Positions 17,882 to 64,000 of a DNA stretch of 64,000 nt are shown in pieces; position 1 is the stretch's first letter, and each line of letters begins with the position of its first letter. The notes beneath the pieces were generated by a model. That model did not search any database. It was not told the DNA's origin and saw nothing but the letters and a program-made list of their open reading frames with translations. This DNA comes from Obrimoposthia wandeli. Lineage: Eukaryota. The stretch is from assembly GCA_977020255.1 (NCBI GenBank), contig CDROCS010001609.1, positions 186,001 to 250,000 of the forward strand. Reading direction: 5' to 3'. The position numbers and the translations under genes are program-made.

Positions 17882-18075
17882 TCAGCCGTAAACTTCAGTG
17901 GAAACAGCAAGGAGGCCATTATTTGTAATCAACTTATTCAACTCTTTCACATCATACACGCACTTAAAGTTAGCATACGATAAAGGCTGAGTAAGCGCCC
18001 ATCTATACAAATTAGTAATATCGATGTACAGAATCTCTGTGGATTGATTTCTGACGACAAAATATTTGTTTCGAA
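17882..18075 (-). pseudogene. Isolated Polinton pPolB fragment
   Basis: NQSTEILYIDITNLYRWALTQ is nearly identical to the PolB segment at ~32650-32730. Confidence 0.8.
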
Positions 18076-28304: not shown

Positions 28305-29271
28305 TTTAAATTTTATTTATATAAAAGATTTGAAATATACTTCTTAATATCAGAATAATTAAACAAATTTTTAAATAAAATATTTATTTTAAAGATAATA
28401 ATGTATTTTCATATGATAGTGGGTAAAGTTATTAAAATATAGTAAGTAATGGCAAAAAGTATGATATTATTTTTTTGTTTATTTTAACAACAGTAAACAT
28501 TTTAATTTTACTTTTGAACTTTAATTTCTTGTCGCAAACTTGTACTTTTTCTGGATTTTCGACAACGTGGAAAAGGTTCTGTCCTTAGTGGCTCTTTCGA
28601 TATTCTTGATATTCTTTCGATATTCTTTCGATTTCGATTGTACTGACTTTAAATCGCCTATTCCTTCTTCCTATATGATTTTGTTGGGGTTTCTATTTGA
28701 AATGCTTTGATTCAGATAGATCCCTTAGGGAGGCCCCCAACGTGAGTTCGGTAGAAATAGGGCTTACAGATGGATGTGGCCTATTTAGGTTTTGTATAAC
28801 TTAAATAAGTCTCAGATCTTAATGGGTTGTGCTATTGTTTTTGCGAGATGCGTACAGAGTTGTCTTCACCAATGTAACTGGTAGAGTTCCCGCTAATGTA
28901 GAGTGATGTGTAAATCGGTAAGTAGTGCTCTACAGCTATATGTGGGTACCAGAAATTAATCTATTCGAACTGTAGGAAAAACTATATTATTATACCAACT
29001 AAAAAGAATTTTCACAATTTGACAATTAGGTTGTCTAACGAAAGTTATTTCAAACACACCGTAACAAGAGATTACCCTAGACTGGTTTATGCCTTACAAT
29101 TTTCCTTGTAAATTGGATGTTATGAAGTTCGATCTCTTGATTGCAAAACTTTACAACTACAATTCAATATTACTTCACTATATAAGCTTATAGAATGTAC
29201 TACGCGATTTAAATTAAATTTAGCTTTGTATCGATTTATAAAATATACTCAGCGATTAATTTAACCTTCAC

Positions 29272-30694: not shown

Positions 30695-31279
30695 TTAAAG
30701 TTTAGGATGAAGGAGAAGAAGAAGGAGAAGGAAAGGGGAAGGTGTCAATTTCGTTAAGTCTATTGTTAGTGTCCGGTTGTTCTGTTCTTCCAGGAACAGA
30801 ATTACTCGCTCCAGAAGCAATTCCGAGAAAGTTGGAGTGTCGCCGAAGTAGAGCCCCAGTAGTTGAATGACGTTAAGGTGAGGGCTTTGGTGGAACGTTG
30901 GGATGCCCTGGACGTTTGGAACGTGCCGCTCTCGAGTACTGAGCCACACATTCCGCGCGTATTGCCAGGAGTGCCGGTCCCGACTAGACCGCCATACTTC
31001 CATGACTCGTTGCTGCGTATCGCGACGGCATATTGGGCACGTGGAGCATTGGCATCACTCGCCACCGATACAACTGGTAGCCGAGTGTCTGCCCACGAGA
31101 CGGCCACAACATTGGACCGTCCAGTGTTCGAAAGGAGCTCGACACATAGGGCAGGTGGGGGTGCCGACTAACCGGGATTTGGCCCAGGTGTACAGGCACC
31201 CTTCATGGAACCGGTGGCCGCACCCTTAGGGAATCGCTGATAGGCCTCGGAGCTTATTGAGGCAAACTGAACACAGCAT
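30695..31279 (-). pseudogene. RING-H2 E3-ligase-like gene with a second Cys/His cluster; two in-frame stops
   Basis: One frame from ATG 31279 reads MLCSVCLNKLRGLSAIP*GCGHRFHEGCLYTWAKSRLVGTPTCPMCRAPF (canonical C3H2C3), then GRHSATSCIGGE*CQCSTCPICR. GC-rich relative to flanks. Confidence 0.85.
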
Positions 31280-31924
31280 TCTACATGAGTGGTGTGTTGG
31301 TTAAAATACGTTTCTTTCCTTAGTCTTATATGATTTTATTCCTAATGTTCAATTTATCCTAATGTTCAATTTATCGAATTTTGCCTTATTAATTGGACAC
31401 TTTTCTCACATTCTTAGTATATAATAAAATATCTTTTTAGGTTTTTTATCAATATAATAATGACAATTTCAGATATACATCATACATAAAAATGGTGAAG
31501 GTCATTTACAGTTTTACAAGATTATTCAATAATAATATACAATTTTATGATAGATATTTTATCGCGGTATGCGAAACACGGGTTTAGTTCATGATGTCAC
31601 GTTTTTGTCAAAAAGTTACCTTCGGTTATTGTTGCCTTCTGGGCTGATTTGTCCGTTACTCCTCCACACAAAAATACAACAGCAGTTGCAGATGTCTTTC
31701 CAGCAGTGTACGATGGGTACTACTATCTGGAGGTAATCTCGGTTGTAAATGCGATATACCGAGAAGGATGAGTAGTCGATGGGAGTGTTGCTGTTGACAA
31801 TGAGGATCCAGGTCTCGGGGTATTGAATATGAAATTCGTGTCTGCAGTTGTTGGGTTTGATGTAACAGTCCTGGAATTCCTCGTAGGTGGTGTTGAATTT
31901 GGACTCGATCGAGGGTTGATTGTT

Positions 31925-33810
31925 ACGGGGCGATACTTGGGAGCGGCGTGCAACCTTTGTAACCTTGGCCGTGGACTCCCTAAAAAACCACGCATTCCCA
32001 TCGTGTTTCATAACCTCAAAGGATATGATTTGCATCATATACTTAAATACGCGTTGGGTACATTAAGCTCTTGGGAAATTTCATGTATACCTCAAACTTC
32101 AGAGAAATATTTATCTTTAACTGCATATACTGAATTCTGCAGTTTAAGATTCATAGATTTTCTGCAGTTTTTGAGCGGGTCTTTAAAAAATTTAACGGCA
32201 TCTTTAAATGCATGGCCAATTACACAGTCAGTGTTCCAAGCTTCGGTTAACGATAAGAGGATTTTTCCGCATAAATTTGCGAAAACTTTCGCAGATTTAG
32301 AAAATACAACTGAAATCCCACCCATAACTGAATTTGAGGGTGTAAGTCTTCAAGACTATAATGAGGCCCGTACATTTTGGGTGAATAATTGTCGAAATCT
32401 TTTAGAATATATGCTTTATTATATGAAGTTAGACATTTATCTTTTAGCTGATGTTTTTGAGTCCTTTCGTGTAAAGTCTTTAGCAGAAGATGGGCTAGAT
32501 CCATTGCATTTCTTTAGTTTACCTGGTCATTCATGGGCAACAGCAATAAAAACTCTTAAAATTAATATCGAGTTACTGCAAGATCCCGCGATGTATCAAA
32601 TGTATGATTATGGTATACGCGGTGGAATGAATTTTGTCAACAAACATCATGTTGTCAAAAATCAATCCACGGAGATTCTGTACATCGACATTAATAATTT
32701 GTATGGGTGGGCGCTTACTCAAACTCTACTTCATGCCTACTTTAAGGGTTTATGATGAGGAAGAGTTGAATAAGTTGATGTCAGATTTGGCTACTGTTGA
32801 TACAGTTTCATCAGATATTAGCTATTTGGTTGAGGTTGACTTAACAATCCCTCCAAATGTGCATGATAAATTAGATGATCTTCCAGTAGCGCCTGTTCAT
32901 CAATTCTCACCTAATTCAAAGGTTAAGAAATTATTGTTAACACATGAAGACAAGTTGAATTATGTGGTGCATTGGCGGCTTCTTCAATTCTACTTAAAGT
33001 TGGGAGCGAAAGTTACTCGAATTCATCGTGCTATAAGCTTCAGTCAAAACTTTGTGTTTATGACTATATTGAGAAGAATTCAAGAAAACGTAATTTGGCC
33101 ACTAGCAAATTCGATCGAGATTTTTACAAGTTAAAAAGTAATAGTCTCTTTGGAAAAACTGTGGAGGACTTGCGGAAACGTATTTGTCTACGGTTTTGCA
33201 ATGATGAGCGTAAACTAATAACATATACTAGCAAGTACAAATTCAAGCGTAGTTTTACAATTGCAGATAACTTGGTAGCAGTGTTATTAGGAAAACAGAG
33301 TATTTGTCTCGATCGACCGAGTTATATAGGTCAAACAGTTTTAGACATTTTTCATCTCAGAATGTACGAGCTCCAATATATAGAATTAGAGAAATATCGC
33401 ATGAATTCAATTGTGAGATCAAAATCGCAGCTGGGGACACTGACTCTTTCTTTTTAGAATGTAAAAATGTTAGTTTAGATAATCAATTATTACCGGCAAT
33501 GTTTAGGGACAACTTACTAGATACCCATAAATATCCCGCTAACCATCCTCTACACTCTATGAGTTTAAAGGATATTATCGGGAAATTTAAGGATGAAAGC
33601 GAGGGACAGGTTTCGTATGATGATTGTATTTTCCTACGCCCTAAATGCTACAGTTTACATGCATCTAATAATACATGTTCAATGAGAGCAAAGGGTGTGG
33701 GAAGAAACAATCTTACACATGAGGCCTACCAGGAAGTTTATGATACTGTGTATATTGAAAGCGTTGAGCAAACTAAATTTATTTCAAGAACCCATCAATA
33801 TTTACATTCA
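31925..33810 (+). pseudogene. Protein-primed family B DNA polymerase of Polinton/Maverick type; frameshifted, 5'-truncated
   Basis: HNLKGYD, FIDFLQFL, DIYLLADVFESFR, GIRGG, YIDINNLY, KLKSNSLFGK, GDTDS, GKFKDE, RPKCYS and AKGV spread across four overlapping ORFs. Confidence 0.93.
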
Positions 33811-34480
33811 TTTACATTCAATCTAACTGTAATTTATTCAACGAAAACTCTATTTTAATTTACTTATAGTCTAAATTACACTTGCATTCAATCAAACTAT
33901 CGACACTCTTATTTTTAAATTACATTCACTTGCTAAGACACATACTTGTATTGAAATTCATACTATCAATCACTTGCATTCATACTCGCATTCAATCTAA
34001 CTATAATTTATTCAACGAAAACTCTATTTTAATTTACTTATAGTCTAAATTACACTTGCATTCAATCAAACTATCGACACTCTTATTTTAAAATTACATT
34101 CACTTGCTAAGACACTTACTTGTATTGAAATTCATACTATCAATCACTTGCATTCATACTTGCATTCAATCTAACTATAATTTATTCAACAAAAACTCTA
34201 TTTTAATTTACTTATAGTCTAAATTACACTTGCATTCAATCAAACTATCGACACTCTTATTTTTAAATTACATTCACTTGCTAAGACACATACTTGTATT
34301 GAAATTCATACTATCAATCACTTGCATTCATACTTGCATTCAATCTAACTATAATTTATTCAACAAAAACTCTATTTTAATTTACTTATAGTCTAAATTA
34401 CACTTGCATTCAATCAAACTATCGACACTCTTATTTTAAAATTACATTCACTTGCTAAGACTCTTACTTGTAAATGACAT
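33810..34480. repeat. 174-bp tandem repeat, about 4 copies
   Basis: atctaact recurs at 33821, 33995, 34169 and 34343. Confidence 0.92.
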
Positions 34481-34980
34481 TCATACTTGCATGCATAATT
34501 TTATTCATTTACATTCATTCTACCTCTCATTTATTCAAACTCTCATTCAAATATTCAAATAAATTAATATTTTTACTAATTTTCTATTAATTCCGTTGTA
34601 ACTTAGTCGTTGAAACGAAAAGAATGTATAAAGAATGGACTTTCTTACTTTGTAAATGTTATTCACTTAAGTTTGAAGATGATATTATGAAATTACATAA
34701 TAAATGTGTTTAATTTTGTATTATTCTCTGACTTCTTTCTTATTATTTTTTTTTTTTTGATTTAATACAAATTTTAACATAATTCTTTAGATGTGTAAGC
34801 CTAGGAAAAACTTTAGTCTAAATTTTCGCATAGAATAGTATGTGTGTGATTACGTAATACATTCTTAACTAATAAGAGTGAACTTAGTATAAATTTCACA
34901 TAAAATAGTGTGTGTATGATTACGTCATACATTCTTAATTGATAAGAGTGAACTTTATCCTAAATTTTCATTATAGACTA

Positions 34981-35535
34981 GATCACAAAAAAGAAGGGTG
35001 GAGACTAAGCCACTTGATCCTTTGAATTAGTAGTTAGCCAAAAAGAAGGGTGGAGACTAGACCACAAAAAGAAGGGTGGAGACTAAGCCACTTGACTCTT
35101 TGAATTAGCAGTTAACCAAAAAGAAGGGTGGAGACTAGACCACAAAAAGAAGGGTGGAGACTAAGCCACTTGACCCTTTCATAGTGGTATATCACAAAAA
35201 AGAAGGGTGGAGACTAAGCCAGCCACTTGACCCTTTCATAGTGGTATATCTCAAAAAGAAGGGTGGAGACTAAGCCACTTGACCCTTTAAACTATGGACG
35301 ACCATAGTGGTATATCAAAGAAGGATGGAGTCTAAGCCACTTGACCCCCCTATCCTTCCCCTCCCCTCCCCTCTCGCCTCCCCCTAAAGGGTGTCATACC
35401 ATAAGGGTATATGTTGCCTCACCAGAGGTGAGGCAACATATACCCTTATGGTGTGGCAAGACACCTTTATGGTGTGACATCCTTATGGTGTGACACCCTT
35501 TAGGGGGGGGTCAAGTGGCTTAGACTCCATCCTTC
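34981..35535. repeat. Iteron-like direct repeats plus nested palindrome
   Basis: Eight aagaagggtggagacta(agccacttga) copies; 31-bp perfect IR at 35320-35350 / 35505-35535; 25-bp perfect stem at 35398-35422 / 35428-35452. Confidence 0.9.
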
Positions 35536-35538
35536 TAC

Positions 35539-36125
35539 CTACTTATATGCATGTATTATTTTAGGTAAAACTTGGACCCATTTTTTATTTCCTTCTTTTG
35601 TGAAATACCTTTTTATTCGATCTCTTAAAGTACGATTAAATCTTTCTACTACTGCTGCTTTGTATTGTGAAAACACAGAGTAGTGATTTATATTATTTTG
35701 TTTAAATAATGATTGAACTTGCTTATTATAAAATTCTTTTCCTAAATCAGTTTTCACATTTTGTGGAATGTCCTCTTTTAATATTTCTTTAATGGCTTCA
35801 AGCATATTGAAGACTTTGCATTAACTGGAATTGCACGAGCAAACCTGCTAAATACATCAATACACGTTAAAATATATCGATATCCCTTATTAATGGAAGA
35901 ATATGTGATCATCTCCATCAAATCCATTTGCCATAAATTATTAGGACCGCTGGTTTTGTAAACTCTAGTTGGAAACCTTCTTCTCATCGGTTTGTTCAGA
36001 CTGCAAGCTAACTGGTCGCTCAGCCATTTCTGCGTTTTCTTGTAATTGTGTTTTGTTCTTTTTGCTTATTTTAAAACTCCGGTGTAGCCAATTGGATCTT
36101 TTGGATTGAACCATATCTTCTTCAT
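35539..36125 (-). pseudogene. Polinton-type retroviral-like (rve) integrase, C-terminally truncated
   Basis: MKKIWFNPKDPIGYTGV..KWLSDQLACSLNKPMRRRFPTR, LWQMDL, YILTCIDVFSRFA, KTDLGKEFYN, KAAVVERFNRTL; one stop and one frameshift. Confidence 0.92.
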
Positions 36126-36211
36126 TACAACAATTTGAATAGAAAGAAAATTTAAATTTAGGTAAAGAAGGGTTAGCCCCCATATCTTTAGCTGATTTTA
36201 TAAATAATTGC

Positions 36212-36541
36212 TTATGAACGTGTCACAGCTATAATACTACTGATAATTGAAGCAACAACTGGAATAACAGCCCCTATGAAACTACCATTCTGTTTAAGAA
36301 TAATATTTCGTTTCCTTTTTTTACTTTTTACATTAGGAATATCTAGAAGAGTTTTTCTATATTTCTTTAATATATTTTTCCGTTTTCCAACTTTTACTCG
36401 ACCCAAAACAATATTATACAAAACTTCCAATAAATCATCTACAACAAAAGATGGAAATGCTTTAAGAATAATCATTCTCTTATGAGAAGAGGCTTTGACT
36501 AAAGCTTTAAAATAGGGTATGCTTCTTTGTATTTTCTTCAT
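36212..36541 (-). CDS. Small basic Polinton protein with KQNGSF plus hydrophobic tail (core/pX-like)
   Basis: 109-aa intact Lys-rich ORF ending KQNGSFIGAVIPVVASII; lies between integrase and ATPase. Confidence 0.6.
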   Translation of the reverse strand: MKKIQRSIPYFKALVKASSHKRMIILKAFPSFVVDDLLEVLYNIVLGRVKVGKRKNILKKYRKTLLDIPNVKSKKRKRNIILKQNGSFIGAVIPVVASIISSIIAVTRS

Positions 36542-36556
36542 TTTAATAAAAAAGGT

Positions 36557-37390
36557 TCAATTTAAATATTGTTTATATTCGAAGCCATTAAAGTTTTTTT
36601 TATTTCTCACTACAGATTTAATTAATTTATTCACTTCTTTTTTCTTAATGATTCTTTTTATTGATTTCTTAGATTTTACTTTACGTTTTCGTTTCACTAT
36701 CAACTTCTTAAAAAGCTAAAAAATTTATCTTTTATAATTGTTCTCTATTTGTTTATAAACAGTTACTCCCTTAGAATTAAATATGTCTGTTAAAACACGT
36801 AAATCATCTGGGCAAGCTTGTGTAAAGTCAATAAATATATACCCATGTGCTTGTTTAGCGGCATCATGGAATGAATCAACTAGAAAGTGCTTATTTTGAG
36901 GAAACGCCTTCTGGCCACGAAATCTACAACTGTTTGATCTCTAGGATTTTTAAATAAAACTAAGTAATGTACATTAAGATTTCTTGTTCTATGGTGACCT
37001 CCTTGGTGAAAAAGATTTTGAGTGATAAATATAACTGTTACTTCACAATGTCTTGCAATCTTTGTAAATAAATTATTAAAGTCCGATTCCTTGTTAGCTT
37101 CCTGATACAAATCATCAATTATTATTACATCTTCTTTTTTCAATCTTTCACACCAATTTGCATCAAATCCTTTAATAAATTTTATTACCTTCAACTTGCA
37201 AACTTCTGTTTGGGTTAATCCACTTTCCTCTCCTCCACCATGATGCCAATAAATATTTTTGAAACTAGAATTGAAAAGAGATTCATTTTGCAACAATTTA
37301 CATTCGAAATGTGTCTTTCCACTTCCACTGGGACCAACTATTTGAAATACAGCATTATTATTTAGCTCCCTTGCATATACTCTTTCATTT
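36557..37390 (-). pseudogene. A32/FtsK-like DNA packaging ATPase of Polinton
   Basis: Walker A GPSGSGKT, Walker B IIIDD, ITQNLF, LNVHYLVLFKNPRD, HGYIFIDF; frameshift near 36900 and no in-frame start. Confidence 0.9.
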
Positions 37391-37408
37391 TTAATATTGT
37401 TTATATTA

Positions 37409-37690
37409 TTATAGAAGTTTCCTTATTGAAATGTACAATGTTAGAGCTATTGTAGATGAAATACAAAAATTAATTAATGAATAATTGGCTATAATTTTAT
37501 TTATTTGTGTACGATTTCTAAATTCTCGAATAACGTGTGATCTAACCAATATTTCAATGTTATCTCTTGTTATATCATTATTTTTTAACTCTGATAAAAT
37601 TTCTTTACCCCTAATTTTTCCAGAAAATATTTCGTCGGCAAGACGATCCACTTCATTGTCTGTATTTATAGTATTATTCATTTGAAACAA
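37409..37690 (-). CDS. Hypothetical 93-aa protein with hydrophobic C-terminus
   Basis: Intact ORF tightly packed and co-oriented between the ATPase and TBP-like genes. Confidence 0.45.
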   Translation of the reverse strand: MFQMNNTINTDNEVDRLADEIFSGKIRGKEILSELKNNDITRDNIEILVRSHVIREFRNRTQINKIIANYSLINFCISSTIALTLYISIRKLL

Positions 37691-37708
37691 TAAGTTTAAA
37701 CAGTTTGT

Positions 37709-38209
37709 TTATAGAAAAGATAACAAGATGTAATAAGATATATTTTCTAAAATCAAATCAACAATGTCTGGATAATCAAAATTTTTCAATCCCAATATCA
37801 TAACTTTACCACTGGAAAATATATTTACACATAGCGGTTTAAACTTCAAAAAACTGAGAGCAGGAAAAATTTATGGTTCAAACATGCATTCTTCTTTCAT
37901 TTTCTCTGCAGTTTTAAAAAGATTTATCAGTTTCCCAAAATTAGCCGAAATCGTGATTGATTGTATTGCAGTGATTTGAATTCCAAATCGTAAATTGAAC
38001 CCAAGCATTGGTATTTTGCATCCCATAACACGACAATTTCCTAAAGGAATTCAATATGAAAATAAAATAAAAAACTAACCTGTAGGAAAAATAACAACGG
38101 TGAAATTGTCAAACTTTTTCACATATTGTCTCGGCTTCCATTCATTGAATGGTAAGTACGAAACATCATCTTCTATTCTACCTTTATAATTTATATTTAC
38201 GAATTTCAT
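37709..38209 (-). pseudogene. TATA-binding-protein-like gene, two exons, one premature stop
   Basis: Exons 38209-38080 and 38040-37709 with a 39-nt GT-AG intron give 153 codons: TVVIFPTGNCRVMGCK ... IQSITISANFGKLINL ... FEP*IFPAL ... VNIFSSGKVMILGLK, aligning to both TBP repeats. Confidence 0.8.
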
Positions 38210-38789
38210 TAGACTAAAATTGTATTCTGTAAAATCTTCTTTATATATGTCTGAACCTGCTTTTTTATTGCATGTTTCTTGTAATTATCTTCCAAACCCA
38301 TTATAATTTGGATGATATATTTCTTCCAATCAAATTTGATTTTTAATATGGATTTAGTCCAATCAAATTCGATGCTTTAGTTATATTAACCAATGAGATT
38401 CATGTCTTTGTTAGAAATTAGTATAAAAGAATGCGCCATTGAAGGACAAATCACAGTAAATGCATTCATATCAAAGACAATTATCAACGATGTACGATAG
38501 TCAACGGATATTAAGCGGTGACGAAGAATTAGAAATGTAATCCGTTTTATATGCACTGGTGGAGAGACTACATGCTCATCAAGATCATGTCTGCAGATGT
38601 CTTTAACCAACGTCCTCTACAAGGGCTCACAAGCCAAACAATTGAAGGATACTTCGCATCCACAGCCAACGCGCTACCGCAAGCCGGGAAAAACCAGATA
38701 CTCGCCATTACAGAAACTGCCATCATCCAACTGAAGAAGACGATGCAGCCATTTTTTACAATGACTCCAGTGGATGGTAAGAAATAAGA

Positions 38790-40209
38790 AGACAGAAACA
38801 ACAATTGATGCAGAAGAATCAGCCAAGCCTTATTGATGCCTATCAAAAGAATATGCCAACCTCAACTTTTCAGATGCCGCAAGATTTCTCAGATGTAGAT
38901 TTAGACGGAAGAATGGCTATTATGGCAAAAAAGGATATGCCCCCTTTGCCGCTGTTAAAGCTTCAAGACAGAGGAAACGTAAAGTTATAAATCCTCAAGA
39001 GAGTGTTCCTATTGACGCCTGTATACAAGCTCTCACCAAAACTGGCATTGTAGAAAAATCCACGAAAGGCCCGTTCTGGTCACAAGTGAGGATGGTACCG
39101 AAGACTAACTCACAACTGCGGAGGCTAATGGTGGACTTCAAACATCTGACACCACACTTGCCGAAGCTCTACATGAAAATCCCAAATATTTTCCATAAAC
39201 TCGAGAAGATACTAGAAGACAGAAGAGCTATTTGGATAGATTTACGTGGAGCTTTTTTCTAAGTAAAAATTAGACAGGCGTCAAGACATCTCACAAACAT
39301 TTGGCATAAAGATAGCTTTTATAGATTCACAAGACTTCCAATGGGCTTGAGGCAAAGTCCTGTCATATTGCAGTGGATCATCACCAGAATACTGAGACAA
39401 CTGGTGACGAAATGGACGGTGGATGTGGCCCACGTTCATATTGACGACATCCTAATAATCGCTAAAAAGAAAGCCAAAGTTTGGAATCAAATCGAAGATT
39501 TCTTCAAAGGTTGGGGCCTTCAAATCAACTATGAAAAATCACAATTGCAGCCAACAAACAAGTTGGAATATTGCGGAATGTTAATCGACATCAAGGCCCA
39601 GTAGATCAGATTACCTAATGACAAATGGAGGTCAACAGATGACATCAAAGAAAAAGAGCAGTTCACAGATGATGCAATCGATTTTCTCAACTACGTAAGT
39701 TGTGTGCTACACTGGCCCTATGTGACAAATTATGTACACACGACATTGAGAAAAAGATGCTACCAATTATTGAAGATCTATGCATCATTATGGAGTTGGA
39801 GGAAGGAGAAGCATCAACTTTGGGCCTCAGACGCCACAAATAACACAATTGCAGTCACGCAAATCAGGCCAAAGATCAAGACACATATGACAGCAAAAAT
39901 CGAATACCAGAATATATACCTACAAGAGGCTACGGCCTCATGACCATGTGGAAGGCAAAAAGACACGACATGATCTTATGCGACAATATGGCCCTGATAT
40001 GGTGTATCAGAAATAGAAGGATCCCCAAACAAATCAAACATTGGCGGATATTGATAGCGATACAAATGATGGCCTCCATCAAACGCCTACAAGTGCAGTT
40101 CATCCGGACGGAAGACAATCTAGCGGACGCACCCACAAGAGCACAAGAGATACCACAAGAAGACAGGGGAATCCTGCTGTCATACGAGATGCACCAGCCC
40201 ATCTCATAA
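38790..40209 (+). pseudogene. RT-RNase H pseudogene with hepadnavirus/nackednavirus-like (or DIRS-related) motifs
   Basis: One frame: RLMVDFK, WIDLRGAFF*, RLPMGLRQSP, HIDD, GLQINYEKSQLQP, SDAT; after a frameshift near 39930, CDNMAL and NLADAPTR. Confidence 0.85.
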
Positions 40210-40369: not shown

Positions 40370-41982
40370 TCTAAAAGATTTAATTAAGAAAAACAGAAGA
40401 ATAACAGTTATGAAAGCCAGCCGCTAGGAGAAATAGCAGTTGCTGTTCACTCCCAGACTCAGAGTGCATTAGCAACGTGCGAACAATCCAGCTGCCGGGA
40501 CGAGTAAAGTTAACAACCACTTAAATTAAGAGATAGTTAATTTAAGATTTTTCCCTTGCAGGAGCCGGAATTCACAGACATATACTTCGCAGTCATATAA
40601 ATTAGAAATTTCAGGGAAATTAAACAAAAAAGAAAAAAACGTAAAAAAGAATCCGAATAACTATCCGAACTGTGAAATAAAAAGAATCCTAACGACTATC
40701 CGAACTAAACAAAAACTACAGAAATCAGAGAGATTAACCAGTAAATTGATATATATAAGAAATGAAAAGGGTAATTCTTCGAACTCGCAATAGAACTGAA
40801 TGTCCAAAATCACGAGACAAGCCAACAGAAACAGAGCAAGGAATCAAACGAACGCCGAGTCGAACCATGCGAGACAGGACCCAGGAATCTGAGAGATTAA
40901 TTCCGAGTATCAGAGCCAATGAACAAGGCCTAGCAATTGATCGGCATTAGGGAGTGAATTAGGACGGACCTCGGAAAACAATCCTAGACTTACTGGTGGG
41001 GAGAGAGTAACATTCGAAATTTATTGCTTCAGTAATTTTGTCATTGGAAATAATCAATTCTGCTATATATCATTTCAGTAATTTGTCATTGAAAATAATC
41101 AATTCTGCTGTATATCAATTCAGTAATTTGTCATTGAGATTAATCAATTTTGCCGTAGTCTTTTGATATAAAATAGTTAATTAAATGGTTAATAGTCGGG
41201 TTCAGATCGTTAATCGACGCTTAAACAAATCAGTAAAAAACTAATTAATTTTATGTTAAATGTGTTTCTTTGTATTTTTTATTATTGTTGTATCGACTGG
41301 CAATTAGCAGCTAAACTGCATAATTGAAGTTTTAATTGAAATTAAAAATAAAGAATCAATACATGTTTATCCTCTTCTCAATTCTCAAATCAACCACAAA
41401 TCAACTTAACACGTAGATAATTTCAGTAATTTTGTCATTGAAAATAATCAATTTTGCCGTATTTTGTTGAAATAATCAATTCATATTGTTCGAAGTACTT
41501 TCACTAGTGACGTAACCTATTTGTAAGCAACATATTATTGAAAAGTATCAAATTTGTATTGTTGCAAGATATCGATTCATATTACTCAGAAGTGTCCGAT
41601 TCGTAATAGTGAGAAACTATCTACGCGTGTAATCAAATTTAGCAAATTAAATTGTAACTAGGAAGCGTACCCCAAATCTTTAACTTACTAGGAATAGTAG
41701 AATATATTCTAATCTATGGTCATCGTTATTTGTGGTTTGTTTGAACTAAGTGTTGTTTGATCAAATTGTTAAAACCTCTTTAGTTGGTGTAATAATATAG
41801 CTCTTTCCTACAGTTGACTATATTAATTCAGGTACCCATATATAGCTATAGAGCACTATCAACCACGTTCACATCACACTAAACTAAAAATATAGGCCCC
41901 ATACACCTGTAAGCCCTATTGCTACAGAACTCACGTTGGGTGCCTCCATACGAAGATCTAATCTCAAATAGAAACCCCAACA
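40370..41982 (+). mobile_element. LTR-like element (copy 2), opposite orientation, left end truncated
   Basis: Ends aatagaaaccccaaca; contains taagccctattgctacagaactcacgttggg; ~46-bp internal repeats at 41029-41160 and 41421. Confidence 0.7.
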
Positions 41983-42230
41983 AAGGTACTCCAGGATGAG
42001 AGTTGTTGGGCGTCACCCAGTCTCATGTGGCTGGGATAACGAGAAGTTATCCCGAAAGGGGTGAGGCCACGATTCCGTCTGGACCGCCACCTTTCTGTCA
42101 CCTGCAGTCGCATGTTCCTGTGGCGTTGGGGACACGCGGGGCATTGACGGTGCTCTCCTCCGTTGCAGCTGCCTGGGGAGTGATGTCCCACTGTCTGTCC
42201 ACGGACGACCAGCTTCATTAGGATATGTAA
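41983..42230 (-). pseudogene. Diverged partial paralog of the RING-gene C-terminal region
   Basis: GQTVGHHSPGSCNGGEHRQCPACP...VTERWRSRRNR aligns with GRLVGRHSATSCIGGE*CQCSTCP...VMEVWRSSRDR. Confidence 0.65.
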
Positions 42231-56146: not shown

Positions 56147-57265
56147 TGTTGGAGTTTCTATTTGAAAGTCTTATTCAAGTAGATCCTCGTATTCAACTAG
56201 GCCCCCAACGTGAGTTCTGTAGCAATAGGGCTTACATATGGATGTGGCTTATTTAGGTTTTGTCATACTTAACTGAGTCTCAAGTCTTAAGGTTGTGTGT
56301 TAATGTAGTGGAGGTGTGTACATAGTTGTGTACACAAGGTACTAAAAAGGGTTCCACTATCGCAGTGTAGTATGTGGAGGGATTTATGTTTTTTATTGTA
56401 ATTTTGAGATTCTAATGAAATTGAACTACTAAACTTGTTACAGAATTATGAGCTTCTAACTTATCACCAAATATATCGTTGCACGAAACCTTTTTCTCCC
56501 CTACATCCACTGTCAAGATAAATTATCCGATAAGTCTACGGAGTCCGACTGTTTTCAGCCAAGTCCTTCGCGTCTTGTTTGTCCACTTAGTCTGAATGGT
56601 TCCTTCCCAACTGCGCTCTCAGATACCCAGCGGTCCCGTCGAATTTGTCTGGCCAATCTTCCTGGATAATCTGTAATTATCTTGAGTTCTCTGACGTCAT
56701 TTTTCCGTATCTTACCTCAGTCAATTCAAGTACTAGCGATCTTCTAATTCTGGACTTTGTTGTGTCTCTGATGATTGTATTACTTTGCTTGCGAGCTTGA
56801 TTTTGAAATGGTTTTCTGTGATTCAATTGGTGTAGGATTTCTGAGTAATACATTTTCTCTCAGTTCTGTAAAGCAATTAGCTTAAGGAAAATTGTCTATA
56901 GTTTTACCTTTAGATGCGTATGATTCTCCTGGGAAACTAATCGATCTCTTCTCAGTTTGCTAGATGGTTGACGGCTGGTCCTGTTCTCAGCAGCTGGCCT
57001 GGTTCCCACGATTAATCTTCGTTAATTATTTCCCAACGTTAACACTTTGATTTTCTTCTTTGTCTCTCGATTTTATGGTCGTATTACCTTTTTCGTTTAA
57101 ACTTACCTATATATAACGCAACACACACAATGTCTTCAAGGTCCTAAATTATTTTGCTTTTTGGATTTAATTTTAAATTTTATCTAACCTTAAATCAAGG
57201 TATTTACTTTATTCTTATAAATAGTCAATTTTATTTTTTAATTTTATAAATTCCTAATCTTAACC
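56147..57265 (-). mobile_element. LTR (copy 4), upstream of gag
   Basis: tgttggagtttctat start and shared internal blocks; on minus it is followed by a weak PBS-like ctgaaacgcccgag. Confidence 0.7.
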
Positions 57266-57979: not shown

Positions 57980-60860
57980 CAATTCCACACTATGCATGGG
58001 GTGCAGAAGGATTATGCAGACATCATACATAAAATTTAATGATATGCGACCCCCCCTACCCCTAGCATACATCCATTTTATAAAAAAAATCAATTTTCTA
58101 ATTTGTTTAAATAATATTTTATTTATTTTTATTTGGTTTTCTAGTTTTTTAGACATTTTGTTTATTAAAAATATATTAAAAGGTAAATTATATTTATTTT
58201 TCATTAATTTCATCTATTTTCAGATTAACTAAATTATATAAGATCATAAATACTACAAAAATATAATTATGGCAACAAGAAGCAAAACTCAGAATTCTGC
58301 ATTTGGACAACCTGCAGAAATTCCACCATCTATGACCCCTTCAAAGGCTGATGTGTTTAGACATTATCTATTTGTAAGAAAAAGAGAAGAGGTAACATCT
58401 AAAGGCACTCTATCTGCAAAAGAAGTTTATAGAAAGGTTGCTAAAGATGTAGAAAAGGTTTGGAATATATTTTCTTTCCCACATATTCAATTTAATGGGA
58501 TTGTCCTAAAAGTTGAACGATTGGTAGAATCTGCATTGAAACTAAACAAAACTCCTTCAAAACAAAGAACACTTTTTTAACACCTTTCAGGAGAAACTAA
58601 AAACATATAATGTAATGTTTGATATTTGCACTTGTAACTGTTATGACAAAAATATCAAGCGATTTGATTGCAGATGTGAAGTAAGAATTCCAGTTAATGA
58701 ATGGGAAAGTTTTGTGGGACAAAAGGAACGGACTAATCAGTTAGGCCCAGTAGACCGTTTTACTACATCTGCCAGAAAAAGAACGGAAAATAGGAACATA
58801 AAATTGGAAGAGAGGAAGGCTAAATTAAAATTAGATATGAATGCTCCGTCAACTAATGATGCTTCTGGTTTTGATAGAAGCAGTGAAATTAATAGTAGCA
58901 GTGAAGAAATTGAAGAAATTGACTTTGTTCCAGATATTGAGCTTCAGGAAAACAACCAAAATAGATTTTCATATAAAAATTTAGCTATTACAGCAGATAG
59001 ATATAGAGTAAGTTGTAGAGCTACAGCTGCCATAGTAAATTCGGCATTGGAAGATATGGGAATATTAAACGAGAAGAATATGTTGGACAAAAAGAAAGTG
59101 GAAAGAGAAAGAGCACGAATAGGTAAAAGTAATATTACAAGAGTAACGTCAGAAAACACAGAAATTGAATGTCTAGGATTTGATGGCAGAAAAGATGATA
59201 CGAAAACAAAGAGTGGAACAGAGAATGAAGAACATTATGTAATAGTTAAAGAACCAGGTGGAATCTACGTTGATCATGTTTCTCCTGATAATGGAACTGC
59301 TCGATCTATTTCACGTGAACTCATGACGTTAATTACAGATTCAAATAGTAAAGAGTCCCTTAAAGCATTGCTATGTGATGGTACTCCAGTAAATACAGGA
59401 CATATTGGAGGAGTAATAAAACTAATAGAAATAGATTTAGAGCGACCATTACAGTGGTTGGTTTGCCTTTTACATGCAAACGAACTGCCATTTAGGCATG
59501 TATTTGAAGCAATAGATGGCAAAACTACAGGACCAAGTACTTTCTAGAGATCAATAGGGAATAAAATTAAAAAAAGATTTAACAGAATTAGAAGTTGTTG
59601 ACTATATCCCGGTTGAAGGCAACATAATTGAAGTTTCCAATGAAATAGTGAATAGTTTTAGCAGTGATCAAAAATATTTATATGAAATGTGCATTAGCAT
59701 TAAATCAGGGAACCTCTCACTCCAGTTAGCTTCAAGATCTCCTGGCACATTACATCATGTTAGATGGTTGACACGAGCTAACAGAATTCTGCGATTGTAT
59801 GTATCAACATATAATCCAGATAAAAGCCTTAAAGACCTTGTTAATATCATCATGACAGTTTATGCTCCAGGATGGTTTTGGATTAAGAGTCATCCTAAAG
59901 CATATGAAGGAGCACCTAACTTTTGGTATCTCACCCATTTAATTAATGATTTAGACAATGAAGAATACCAAATAATTATGGAACGTGTTTTAAAAAATAA
60001 TTCATATTTTGCTCACCCAGAAAACATGTTATTCTCAATGGTAAGAGACAGAAGAAGACATATTAGGGAATTTGCACTTCAAAAAATAATTCGCGCAAGA
60101 ACTACAGGTAAAATTGAAAGGAATTTTGAGCTTCTCAAAACATTGAATCTAAAGGCAAATGACTATGTTGATATGATTGACTGGGATAAAGAAAACATCA
60201 CAACGCCCCCTATTTTAAGACATTTGACAAACGACGAGCTTTTAATCATACGAAAAGAACCCCTACAACTTATTAATATCCCCTGTCATAGCCAAGTAGT
60301 AGAACATGCAGTTAATTTAGTTACAAGAGCATCAGCGGTTAGAATTGGCTACGCTAACAGGCAAACATATATTTTAAATGTCATTGATTCTAGGAAGAAA
60401 CTGCCTATATTTGAGTGGAAAAGTCAGTGGTCAATGTAATACGACGTATTATGTATATAAATATATGTTCATTTTCTAAAAAGCATATTTTATTTATTTT
60501 ATACCACCATTAAATATTTGTTAAGTATATTATAATTATTCTTTAAAAATAGAATTTCTACACATTGCTCATATGAAGAATGAACTCGTTTTCTATAATT
60601 TACATAATCTTTATTCTATAATTCATAAAGTACCTTAAAAACACATAATAACATTAAAAATAAAGTTTATGACCTACATATCTCATCTAGTTTAATTGTC
60701 TGAATATATGGATTTTTTCCATAGATTTAACAAAAATGATGGGGTCGTATGCGAGGGGTAGGGTGGGTCGCATGGCAATGTAATTTTAGTATGTTGTTCA
60801 GGAACCCAAAGGGAACTCAAGGCATAATGTGTAATTCAAATATAAAATTTCGACCCGGAT
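57980..60860 (+). mobile_element. hAT-like DDE DNA transposon with degenerate transposase (58269-60439) and long imperfect TIRs
   Basis: FDGRKD, CDGTPVNTG, CLLH (CxxH) and PCHSQVVEH motifs; IR core 58044-58070 vs 60747-60773 matches 25/27; similarity extends outward. Confidence 0.75.
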
Positions 60861-61169: not shown

Positions 61170-64000
61170 TTTACTCTATCCATCTACTCTATTGGCATGT
61201 ACAATAATTGGTTCCTTTCTTTTTATGTCAAGTGATTTTACTTTCAAATTTGTCGCAGTTGTTTGAATTATCTCATACGGTCTCTTATAAGGTCTATGAA
61301 TTTTGGCCGACAATCCAGGCTCTAAACCTGGATAAAATATCATTACATGATATCCTACTTTGAATTGATGATCTTTCACTTTTTTGGCAATCTGTTCTTT
61401 GTATGTTTCCTGATTAAATCTCAATTTAAGACCAGCTTTTGTTCAAGCGTCTTGTAATCTTTCTTTCATTACAACGGCATATTCGTCTGTTTCTAAGTAC
61501 TGTGATGTTGGATTTGACCACTCTAAATCCATGGGCATGTTATTTTGTCTCAAGTACATTAAATAAAAAGGTGTATATCCTGTCGCTTCTCTGATTGAAT
61601 TTCTGTACGCGAATAGACATGGTGGAATATGGAAATCCCATTATTGTTGCTTTTCTGAGCAATACGATTGTATCATTGCACACAATGTTTTATTGAATCT
61701 TTTAACTAATCCATCCGCCTGTGAATGATATGGTGATGTTTGTAATTTACTTATTCCAAATATTTTTGATACTGATTTGATAACTTATTTTTTGTTGGAG
61801 CTCCACATCTGAATATTATCTTCTCGACTTTTAGTTGAGCTATTGTGTCAGCCTTTTGATTAAGCATTGCGTAAGCTTCCATCCATCTTGTTAAGTAATC
61901 TGTGAAAACAAGCACGTATTAGTTTCTTTTCGTTGATTCCTTGGGGTCCAAGTAGTAAATAAAAAAAATCATAGCAGTAAATTCCATTGGAACTAGCGGT
62001 ATCAGCATTGGTTTTAGTGTTACTCTTGTTCTCTGATCAGTATCTTTCCGAGTCAAACATACTTTACACAATGTTTTTATATCATTTTCCATTTCGTCCC
62101 AACAATATTTTTCCTTAATCCTGGATGCAGGTTTTCGATTAGATAAATGTCCACCTAACATTCCGTCGTGATAATGAATTATTACTGCTTTAATTAATGA
62201 CGTTGGCATCACTACTACTGTTTTTTCTTGACTGTTAACGAAGTGCAATATTCCTTCTTGATAGAATATTTCATGGTTAATTCCTCTTCTAGTTCTCCTT
62301 TAGCTAGAAATTCTAGTATTTAACTTAATTTTGGATTTTCTTCTGTTCTTTTACGATTTATTTATCGATTTTGGCTAATTTAACTAAAACTGTCAGTAAA
62401 TTTGGAATTTAAACTTTCTAGACATTTCCTTTCTTATCTACATTCTCCAGTCGTGACAAACAATCGGCGTTTTCGTTAGCTGTATCTGCTATTTTTAAAA
62501 AACCATGTGTTTAATTTATGTGTTTGTATAAATATTGAAGCAGTTTATGATCAGTGTATAGAATTATTATTTTCCCTAAAAATAATGTCTGAATTTACTT
62601 GTCGAATACAGTAATTATTCACCTATAAGGGGTCCCACCTATAAGGGTGTCCGGTCACCGAAAATTTCACGCTTCACCTATAATAGTACCTTTCCAAGCT
62701 TTTAAATAATGCATCTATAAGTGATTCGATGTCGGTCTCTCTCAAAAACATGTTTTAATGAATACCCTTACAGGTGAATAATTACTGTATACGATCACTA
62801 GACATTTTTCTTAACTATAGAATATCCTGCTTTATTTATGTCAGAAAAATCTAAAATAGATGCTTTAATTAACTTTTGTTTCAATTTCTCAAATGCTTTT
62901 TGAGCATCTGCTCCCCAGACGCATTTCTTGTCTTTCCTTGTGAGCTTTTTTATTGGCCCTGCTATGTATGAAATGTGTTTCACAAAAAGTCTTTAATAAT
63001 TAGCTAAATCTAGAAAATTTTGTAATTGTTTAACCGTTGTCGGTGCGGGATGTTCTTTTACTTTCTCAATATTAAACCGGATCAGGTTTTATCCCTTCTT
63101 TCGAAATTATGTGAACTAGGAATGTTACTTCTGCCTTGGCCCATTTGCACTTTGTTGGATTTACTTTAAGTTTAGCTATATTTTTGAGAAGTTCGTCAAA
63201 AGAATTTTAAAAGTTATTATGACGTCTATGTAAACTAATGTGTTTTCACATCCTGCTAACACAAAATTCATGCAACGTTGAAATGTTGCTGGTGCTTCCG
63301 TTAGTTCAAAATGTTTTTTTTCACACTCATACAGGCCTTCTCTGCATGAAAAAGCTGTTTTATGTTTGTCTTCCTTCTCAATCTCGATCTGCCAATAACC
63401 ACTGTGAAGATCTAATTTATCTAACATTTCCTCGAATCTAGGAAGTGGCTACATGTCTTTTCTAGTTATCTCGTTTAAATCGCGGAAATCGATGCAGAAT
63501 TGCATCTTACCATACTTTTTCGGACCTGCACCACCAGTGCTGAGAAAGGTGAGAAATTCGGTCTGACTACTCCTGCTTTTAACATAGTGTCGATCTGTTC
63601 CTTCGCATATCCTTGTTGGTGTAATGGTACTCTGTAAGGGCGTTTATACACTACTTTGTTTTCAGTTAGGGATATTGTGTGTTTAATTACTGGTGTTCTC
63701 CTTAATCATATTGATTCTTAGCTATCACTTTTGGAAATCTATTAATGACATACAGTTATTTATCGCTTTGTTGCTGATTTAATCTCGTGGATTATTTTGT
63801 TATTTCCTCGTAAATATCTGTCACTTCGATTTTTTTTAACCTAATTTCATTGCGTCTATGTGTAATGTGTCTGGTTTGATTAATTTACTTAATTTTATAC
63901 CATTGTACAGCAAAATTATCTTCATATGTTGGATTCATTAATCTTATAGACAGTTTATTATCATTTACATATCCTATAGAACATACGATCGGAAGTTCAT
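61170..64000 (-). pseudogene. Ty3/Gypsy pol remnant (RT, RNase H, integrase); runs off the window
   Basis: DLHSGYWQI, KTAF, APATFQRCM, VYID, HDGMLGGH, YHSQADGLVKRFNKTL, TGYTPFYL. Confidence 0.9.
62609..62787. mobile_element. Tc1/mariner-type MITE with TA TSD inserted in Gypsy pol
   Basis: ta|cagtaattattcacctataaggg ... cccttacaggtgaataattactg|ta. Confidence 0.8.

Follow-up and report, generated by a model that had tools for sequence, protein, structure and literature searches.

How would Polintons, if they are viruses, switch on their virion genes without an RNA polymerase of their own or a helper giant virus? The question is raised by a 64-kb stretch of the Obrimoposthia wandeli genome (assembly GCA_977020255.1, contig CDROCS010001609.1, forward-strand positions 186,001 to 250,000; hereafter the window, whose own coordinates are used throughout), in which an earlier note had described a block at 30695 to 38340 as a Polinton/adintovirus-like element with its own transcription-initiation factor and ubiquitin ligase. 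Our analysis suggests an answer to which, taken as a whole, we would give a probability of about 0.58: the block would be a dead copy, with an internal deletion, of a Polinton/adintovirus family that has been highly amplified, and intact members of that family may use a short viral TATA-binding protein (TBP) as a late switch on host RNA polymerase II (Pol II). What appears to be new, judging from sequence, is a Polinton clade that pairs a reduced TBP with a promoter box of late type that matches it; the example here is a dead copy from a family that is very abundant.

Genes in the window were called from a Pfam scan and from comparison with intact relatives in metagenome loci (numbered with L below), and the labels penton, basic protein and core-like were given by position or recall unless a match is stated. 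The scan identified a DNA polymerase of family B that is primed by a protein (pPolB, or PolB; PF03175, E 8.5e-14), an rve integrase in two pieces (E 7.7e-7 for one and 7.4e-4 for the other, neither of which reaches the curated cut-off), an A32 ATPase (PF04665, E 1.8e-6), a TBP-like piece (PF00352, E 0.007, matched by one of three pieces) and a RING-H2 gene (zf-rbx1, E 2e-7). The first three, on which the earlier assignment had been based, are thus present where they had been placed, and they support the Polinton/adintovirus identity. From left to right, the genes of the element, including small open reading frames (ORFs), are as follows.

31921 to 33798, plus strand: protein-primed PolB in four frames, ends missing; PF03175, 43-63% identity to intact relatives.
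35543 to 36128, minus strand: rve integrase in two frames, cut at the palindrome described below; Pfam and relatives.
35965 to 36183, minus strand: small ORF overlapping the integrase start, kept in relatives at 31-35% identity.
36212 to 36541, minus strand: open 109-aa basic core-like protein in the PZ position, 30-63% identity in relatives.
36560 to 36715, minus strand: Lys/Arg-rich small ORF piece where relatives have the basic protein, assigned by position alone, with no tblastn match.
36728 to 37422, minus strand: A32-like packaging ATPase in two frames; PF04665, relatives up to 81% identical.
37409 to 37681, minus strand: open 90-aa ORF with a hydrophobic C-terminus and weak homologues in the same position of L020 and L013.
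37712 to 38209, minus strand: short viral TBP in three pieces; Pfam and intact relatives.
38422 to 38540, plus strand: canonical TATA with the first part of a divergent gene, which a retroelement interrupts at ~38540; the high-depth unit ends here on the right.

A metagenome scan gave 57 related loci, and homologues of the ATPase numbered 583, with identity up to 81%. In the longer loci, variable accessory genes are followed by the ATPase, the basic protein, the 109-aa core-like protein, the small ORF with the integrase, a single penton-position gene or a pair of them, a small gene in the PW position (as named in the accessible text of PMC8097293), the major capsid protein (MCP), the protease and one further gene, and then by a convergent PolB. 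The modelled L009 MCP matches the MCPs of iridovirus, Sputnik and mavirus at E ~1e-13, which points to a double-jelly-roll fold; the MCP profile had no sequence match in PDB, and the fold search alone identified the gene. The L031 protease is an adenain (Peptidase_C5), and the penton gene of the relatives is a candidate assigned from position alone. Relatives with a predicted double-jelly-roll MCP and an adenain bear out the earlier view of this lineage as virus-like. As for the two small proteins, the 109-aa protein falls in Atlas clusters of Preplasmiviricota, with PF05829 as its nearest Pfam family at 0.77; membership of the adenovirus pX family is a lead only. The 90-aa ORF shares 25-29% identity with its counterparts in L020 and L013 (pairwise E 4e-7 and 7e-7). 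In IMG/VR, the ATPase, the ATPase alignment and the MCP alignment gave no relative, and the TBP alignment gave one weak match (36%).

The copy in the window is heavily damaged. Measured on a 1089-aa relative, PolB retains residues ~392-1047; measured on one of 348 aa, the integrase retains ~10-205 and has lost its C-terminal ~140 aa. Only the 109-aa and 90-aa ORFs are open frames. As the earlier note had said of capsid and protease genes, none is in view: with 11 module proteins as queries, capsid, penton and protease remnants gave 0 matches at E<0.05 across the whole 64 kb, and this copy is for that reason best regarded as a defective fragment rather than an intact Polinton member. No flanking pair of terminal inverted repeats (TIRs) was found in the window, where an internal palindrome may be a TIR-TIR junction, and Rfam had no match in 28.5-42.5 kb. 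The gene block that had been proposed therefore holds in its content and not in its integrity, since nearly all of its genes are broken and it is not one unit, 30.6-31.9 kb being mostly low-depth, GC-richer DNA; its interruption by a retroelement likewise stands, with the break at ~38540 by the depth edge and not at 38400.

Between PolB and the integrase lies a 1.75-kb non-coding cassette with three parts, none assigned to a strand.

33794 to 34487: 4.0 tandem copies of a 174-bp unit, beginning where PolB similarity stops.
34813 to 35350: a 70-bp unit repeated 2.2 times, with 78-, 57- and 26-bp repeat arrays, the final unit being the left palindrome arm.
35319 to 35536: imperfect 218-bp palindrome, centre 35425, folding z = -16.6; candidate TIR-TIR junction or internal hairpin.

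The repeat and palindrome cassette had no real match among the 57 metagenome loci, and the palindrome pattern had 0 matches in IMG/VR. Gene order is that of L009 and L027, except that everything from the integrase C-terminus through the PolB C-terminus is replaced by the cassette; an order equal to theirs minus the capsid module argues for a virus-like family and a defective fragment in this copy. A faint second PolB-like remnant lies within the cassette (34621-34710, plus strand, E 0.003), and two adjoining palindromes were seen inside the accessory region of L027 (794-957).

The abundance of the family was judged from contig depth in four of five runs, X3 being left out; three of the four (X1, X2 and X4) are one sample. 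In X1, depth is flat at 0.6-1.2 million over 31.9-38.54 kb, as against 3-90 on the host and reverse transcriptase (RT) flanks, and nearly all depth falls on 31921-38540 (6.6 kb), at 46,000-108,000 times a single flank contig, where summed contig depth does not equal copy count and short overlapping contigs inflate it. Contigs on a 15.5-kb stretch make up 3.3-4.0% of all contigs in the three runs of one sample. They are spread over the 99+, 95-99, 90-95 and <90% identity classes, a spread that rules out one clonal virus, replicating, as the origin of this depth. Because depth at 31.9-38.5 kb stands four to five orders above the flanks, the family has probably been amplified to an extraordinary degree, and the simplest reading is a copy number in the thousands to tens of thousands; vertebrate Mavericks have a median of 8 and a maximum of 287 copies according to the accessible text of PMC8097293. 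If the depth signal is true, Polintons can form a major part of an animal's genome.

What was amplified may, tentatively, have been a capsid-less non-autonomous unit (PolB, repeats with palindrome, integrase to TBP) as the standard form of the family, and not a copy left by a one-off deletion or junction. Such a recurrent layout is favored by a depth that is roughly even over PolB, the cassette and the integrase-to-TBP side (0.6-1.2 million in X1) and by some shared joints, since in other copies of the same layout PolB runs into the palindrome center (33869 to 35422) or else into the 109-aa gene (32998 to 36442), and it would also fit a gene order equal to that of L027 and L009 minus the module. 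A junction or deletion is favored, in turn, because an X5 contig continues past 35543 with different letters, so that the integrase cut is not universal, and because the palindrome center reads as though a terminus starting with AG had been joined to a trimmed end, a pattern that suits a TIR-TIR junction just as well (AG end motifs of Polintons/Mavericks are described in the accessible text of PMC8097293); family PolB also continues differently upstream of 31921. We continue to prefer a dead, internally deleted copy.

The TBP is the first of two components on which the proposed late switch depends. Its three pieces match intact relatives at 43-59% identity, and 14 of the 57 loci match them, with some redundancy (L025 to L027 are one element, and L002, L010 and L055 are close kin). 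Of the 15 close-clade loci that extend 1.5 kb or more upstream of the ATPase, 10 have it, and in 5 it was not seen. These counts uphold TBP as a syntenic gene of the family, as had been suggested, and an origin as a host gene fragment or recent capture is ruled out by its being intronless, syntenic and on a separate branch. Intact family TBPs are 144-161 aa long, match PF00352 at E ~1e-17 and are predicted by AlphaFold2 (confidence, pLDDT, 93) to take up a fold for which Foldseek returned TBP matches at E 5e-10; the TBP profile recovered 52 more 50%-clusters at E<1e-30.

Compared with cellular TBPs, the short TBPs keep the C-lobe PE-x-F motif, the TFIIB-binding glutamates and the N-lobe strand phenylalanine, lack ~13 residues of N-lobe helix H2 and have the first N-lobe phenylalanine replaced; at the four phenylalanine positions that we take to be DNA-intercalating, three residues are kept. 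The median lobe spacing is 46 residues in the short TBPs versus 59 in cellular ones, and in a quick tree the short TBPs branch apart from cellular TBPs with an SH-like approximate likelihood ratio test (SH-aLRT) value of 99. TFIIB is contacted by C-lobe glutamates, and the contacts of TFIIA, TAF1, Brf and Mot1 lie largely on H2, according to the accessible text of PMC7221094. Ratios of nonsynonymous to synonymous substitution of 0.18-0.33 in three related pairs, versus 0.015 for the ATPase, suggest that TBP is under purifying selection that is weaker than on the ATPase. Beside TBP, often head-to-head, L002, L003, L009, L010, L020, L027 and L055 carry a conserved gene of ~115-190 aa with no Pfam match, which is absent from the window. 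A crude motif scan of 469 ORFs showed no TFIIB. In the accessible text of PMC8502044 and the preprint 10.1101/697771, TBP is associated with Polintons in a figure label only, and the figures, which lie outside that text, may show an animal TBP; the accessible parts of PMC11161782, 10.64898/2026.10.13.758929 and 10.64898/2026.06.19.733378 mention neither TBP nor TATA.

The second component is a TATA-like octamer, TATAAACA, in the promoters of the family. Motif counts leave out L056 to L058 (unrelated weak matches), site and spacing counts leave out sites near contig ends, and per-gene counts leave out near-identical upstream regions; the box counts come from related, partly redundant contigs and are for that reason not independent. 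So counted, TATAAACA was observed 205 times in family loci versus 38 expected, lies on the gene strand at 150 of 153 distinct sites and has an ATG 28-45 nt downstream at 93 of the 153, versus 1/17 for the control octamer TGTAAACA, 0/40 for TATAAAAA and 8/40 for TATAAATA. The box sits ~36 nt upstream of the ATG of ATPase, core and capsid genes. Its spacing to the ATG is tight (interquartile range [IQR] 33-42) and that to the upstream stop loose (IQR -39 to 24), and where no upstream stop is near, 27 of 44 boxes keep the ATG spacing.

By gene, the box precedes the ATPase in 27/36 cases, the 109-aa gene in 22/27, the MCP in 7/8, the post-protease gene in 3/4 and the basic gene in 2/3, and it stands before the pre-integrase small ORF in 4/10, where an ATAAACA core is seen by eye in 10/10. 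It is missing before TBP (0/12), the TBP neighbor (0/7) and PolB (0/1), and TBP genes often show GTATATAA at the box spacing together with a CCAAT box. Where the box falls in coding DNA, it is read as TAT AAA in 32/32 cases (expected fraction 0.44) and as ATA AAC in 9/9 (expected ~0.07), and because it fixes synonymous codons, the conserved YKQ and SINK peptides appear to be partly DNA signals. In the window, box searches found four TATAAACA boxes, and TBP has a canonical TATA instead.

36570 to 36577, minus strand: TATAAACA before the 109-aa gene.
36750 to 36757, minus strand: TATAAACA in the ATPase end (YKQ), before the basic ORF.
37398 to 37405, minus strand: TATAAACA before the ATPase.
37706 to 37713, minus strand: TATAAACA before the 90-aa ORF.
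38239 to 38247, minus strand: canonical TATA TATATAAAG, 38 nt before the TBP start.

TATAAAC was not found in any Polinton paper covered by our literature search, whose scope did not extend to Repbase or to subscription papers (original Polinton, Maverick, Widen 2023).

Taken together, the sequences lead us to propose a switch in four steps. After entry or de-repression, early genes, the viral TBP among them, would be transcribed by host TFIID and Pol II; their promoters are of the ordinary TATA type, and several carry a CCAAT box that may be used. The short viral TBP, modeled as a two-lobed saddle, retains the TFIIB glutamates and lacks H2, the docking surface for TFIIA, TAF1 and Mot1/BTAF1. 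It could then bind TATAAACA ~36 nt before the ATPase, core and capsid starts, presumably late, and recruit host TFIIB and Pol II outside TFIID; the 3' half of a TATA box is touched by the changed N-lobe, and it is in that half that TATAAACA departs from the consensus. Finally, pPolB would copy the genome and the rve integrase would insert it, and defective copies would accumulate. A defined TBP and an 8-bp box make the late-switch idea testable, box-driven transcripts would be a marker of active elements, and a TBP without H2 could be a natural probe of TFIIA- and Mot1-independent initiation. The further proposal that animal Polintons of this clade are self-sufficient nuclear viruses, in which one 145-aa TBP escapes Mot1/TFIID and reads TATAAACA as the smallest such early-to-late switch known to us, with a largely capsid-less form at 10^4 copies or more here, well above animal Maverick loads in the literature consulted, goes beyond what we would hold other than as a conjecture with the odds against it.

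Several observations weigh against a switch operated by the viral TBP. The box is mostly missing before penton genes (6/13), the gene before the MCP (2/8) and the protease (0/2), is not found before relatives of the 90-aa ORF (0/3) and does precede one RING-HC accessory gene. TBP is lacking from view in the 5 of 15 close-clade loci mentioned above, some of them with boxes, and L004, L013 and L015 carry boxes with no TBP seen in their partial contigs; in L031 it lies at the other end of the contig, so that it can sit elsewhere, and supply in trans is possible. Among the fold-search matches is 1qn3, a wild-type plant TBP on the C(-25) TATA variant, which presumably reads TATAAAC, and because a plant TBP on this variant is in PDB, host TBP may suffice. 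The box might accordingly be read by host TBP/TFIID or another factor, the viral TBP being an optional decoy that titrates TFIIB or occupies host promoters, and a position as variable as that of other accessory genes and a dN/dS (the substitution ratio above) well over that of the ATPase would suit such a role. We consider this possible but improbable: the C at position 7 is retained among elements whose ATPases are 50-80% identical, while neither TATAAATA nor TATAAAAA shows enrichment. TBP genes have another TATA at an equal spacing, and a site meant for host TBP alone would have no need to avoid the consensus. A late switch through the viral TBP therefore remains our preferred reading.

The ubiquitin ligase of the earlier note fares differently. 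At the left edge of the block the following features were found.

30695 to 31279, minus strand: intronless RING-H2 gene with two in-frame stops (31226-31228, 31055-31057), 53% GC; zf-rbx1.
31449 to 31634, no strand: piece of intermediate depth, probably family-derived (bin depth 37,708; X5 record 25).
31640 to 31921, no strand: low-depth GC-richer stretch replacing the PolB 5' part, with loose ends at 31921 in X1, X2 and X4.

The RING-H2 gene encodes a putative ligase whose C3H2C3 ligand pattern is present, with an in-frame stop interrupting it; a frameshift was ruled out, in-frame stops being present. Its depth is 594 versus ~970,000 for the element in X1, or ~700-6000-fold below the element overall, its GC content is 53% versus 29-36%, and it is parted from PolB by the low-depth stretch and the break at 31921; the frame at 31619-31921 had no homologue in protein searches. 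RING-H2 had 0 matches in the 57 loci and no homologue at E<=0.001 in a set of 5.8 billion proteins. A second RING-family piece (41967-42218, minus strand, 53% GC, 50% identity over 44 aa) is homologous at 42069-42200 and adjoins a retro-like repeat, and because this homologue lies outside the block, in the kind of setting that the earlier note had itself named as contrary to its proposal, RING-H2 is not supported as a gene of the lineage. DNA just downstream of it resembles the flank of a long terminal repeat (LTR) element at 56-57 kb. The gene is probably not part of the Polinton unit and may come from a different, mid-copy element or a rare subfamily.

That it is genuine cargo of a minor Polinton subfamily, head-to-head with an early gene, seems unlikely in view of this depth, GC content, absence from the loci and retroelement company, even though it lacks introns and diverges from an early promoter of the family type at ~31417 (GTATATAA with an upstream ATTGG directly precedes the 31449 to 31634 piece on the plus strand), accessory regions are variable and relatives carry other ubiquitin-pathway genes. 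The last of these points preserves the general ubiquitin idea at the level of the clade, since accessory genes of relatives (L004:190-3325, L015:952-1260, L027:225-719, L011:1710-2168) include a dual-specificity phosphatase, TRAF-like and RING-HC genes and an E2 enzyme, with which the IAP and TRAF-like labels in the accessible text of PMC8502044 agree. L015 opens with a bacterial-looking membrane-protein gene piece (2-511), so that its contig may be chimeric.

The weakest alternative, which we hold to be very improbable, would make ATAAACA a forkhead-type site, or else a signal for the 3' end of the gene upstream, rather than a TATA-like element. In its favor, the core resembles the forkhead consensus, many boxes overlap a stop codon (47/133 lie within 0-19 nt of an upstream ORF end), and the first T is often C or G before the pre-integrase small ORF (6/10). 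Against it, strand polarity is strict and ATG spacing fixed, the forkhead variant TGTAAACA shows no enrichment (19 sites vs 22 expected), and AATAAA is present at 6/8 terminal gene ends checked, with the box past the stop at none of them.

In this AT-rich animal genome, the block belongs to 14 kb of clustered mobile-element debris, and two host genes flank the cluster head-to-head: a kinesin at 21-28.3 kb (minus strand; PF00225, E 1.8e-39) and a malate dehydrogenase-like gene at 43.1-49.7 kb (plus strand; by eye). Three copies of a retro-like end segment, 75-82% identical, were seen at 28680-29022, 41761-41984 and 56147-56335; the first two are inverted and bracket the 28.7-42 kb cluster, and the third is upstream of a gag-like ORF. 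The region to the right of the element, 38540-40209 (plus strand), contains RT and RNase H-like sequence (RVT_1, E 1.8e-13) with no tyrosine recombinase seen by eye, and its motifs are ones that we take to resemble DIRS or hepadnavirus. Elsewhere in the window are an isolated ~145-bp PolB fragment (17921-18070, minus strand, 82% identical to 32639-32779), two long ORFs of 333 and 293 aa with no Pfam match that look transposase-like by eye (58546-60439, plus strand) and a small inverted-repeat element with 30-bp arms inside a Gypsy pol region (62602-62794).

How, then, does this system compare with known ones? With cellular TBP/TRF proteins (PF00352) the viral TBP shares the two-lobed fold, the C-lobe motifs with their TFIIB glutamates and three of the four presumptive intercalating phenylalanines, and it differs from them in a reduced N-lobe, ~13 residues shorter, in 20-27% identity in structural alignments and in its separate branch in the quick tree.

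The beta- and gammaherpesvirus TBP mimics (KSHV ORF24, EBV BcRF1 and HCMV UL87, of Kaposi's sarcoma-associated herpesvirus, Epstein-Barr virus and human cytomegalovirus) offer an analogy, for there, according to the accessible text of PMC6541308, late genes have a modified TATA ~30 bp upstream, which a TBP-like protein of the virus reads with host Pol II. Those mimics are large, contact Pol II directly through an N-terminal domain, have five partner proteins in a complex of six and recognize TATT, whereas here a 145-aa protein with a predicted true TBP fold keeps the TFIIB glutamates and no partner complex was seen; with proteins of 144-161 aa and a TATAAACA box, the family is not a member of the viral preinitiation complex class, and the likeness is one of analogy only. 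In the TBPs of large double-stranded DNA viruses, as far as the accessible text of PMC7221094 describes them, the N-lobe regulatory surface has diverged, which is proposed to permit escape from Mot1/BTAF1, as may be the case here; those proteins mostly lose host-type TFIIB contacts and bring their own TFIIB, whereas here the glutamates are kept and H2 is deleted.

Polintons/Mavericks, which are the adintoviruses (Eupolintoviridae) in the accessible text of PMC8502044 and PMC8097293, are the closest match: the element shares with them the PF03175-type pPolB (their Alpha class), the rve integrase, the A32/FtsK ATPase and the small core proteins, and its relatives add penton-position genes, double-jelly-roll MCP, adenain, convergent modules and variable accessories. 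In the readable parts of PMC8502044, TBP is only a label in the legend of a MELD-virus figure and is not in the animal maps, whereas here it is recurrent. No promoter box was found described for Polintons in our literature search, the copy in the window is without the capsid module, and the apparent abundance of its family lies far above vertebrate values.

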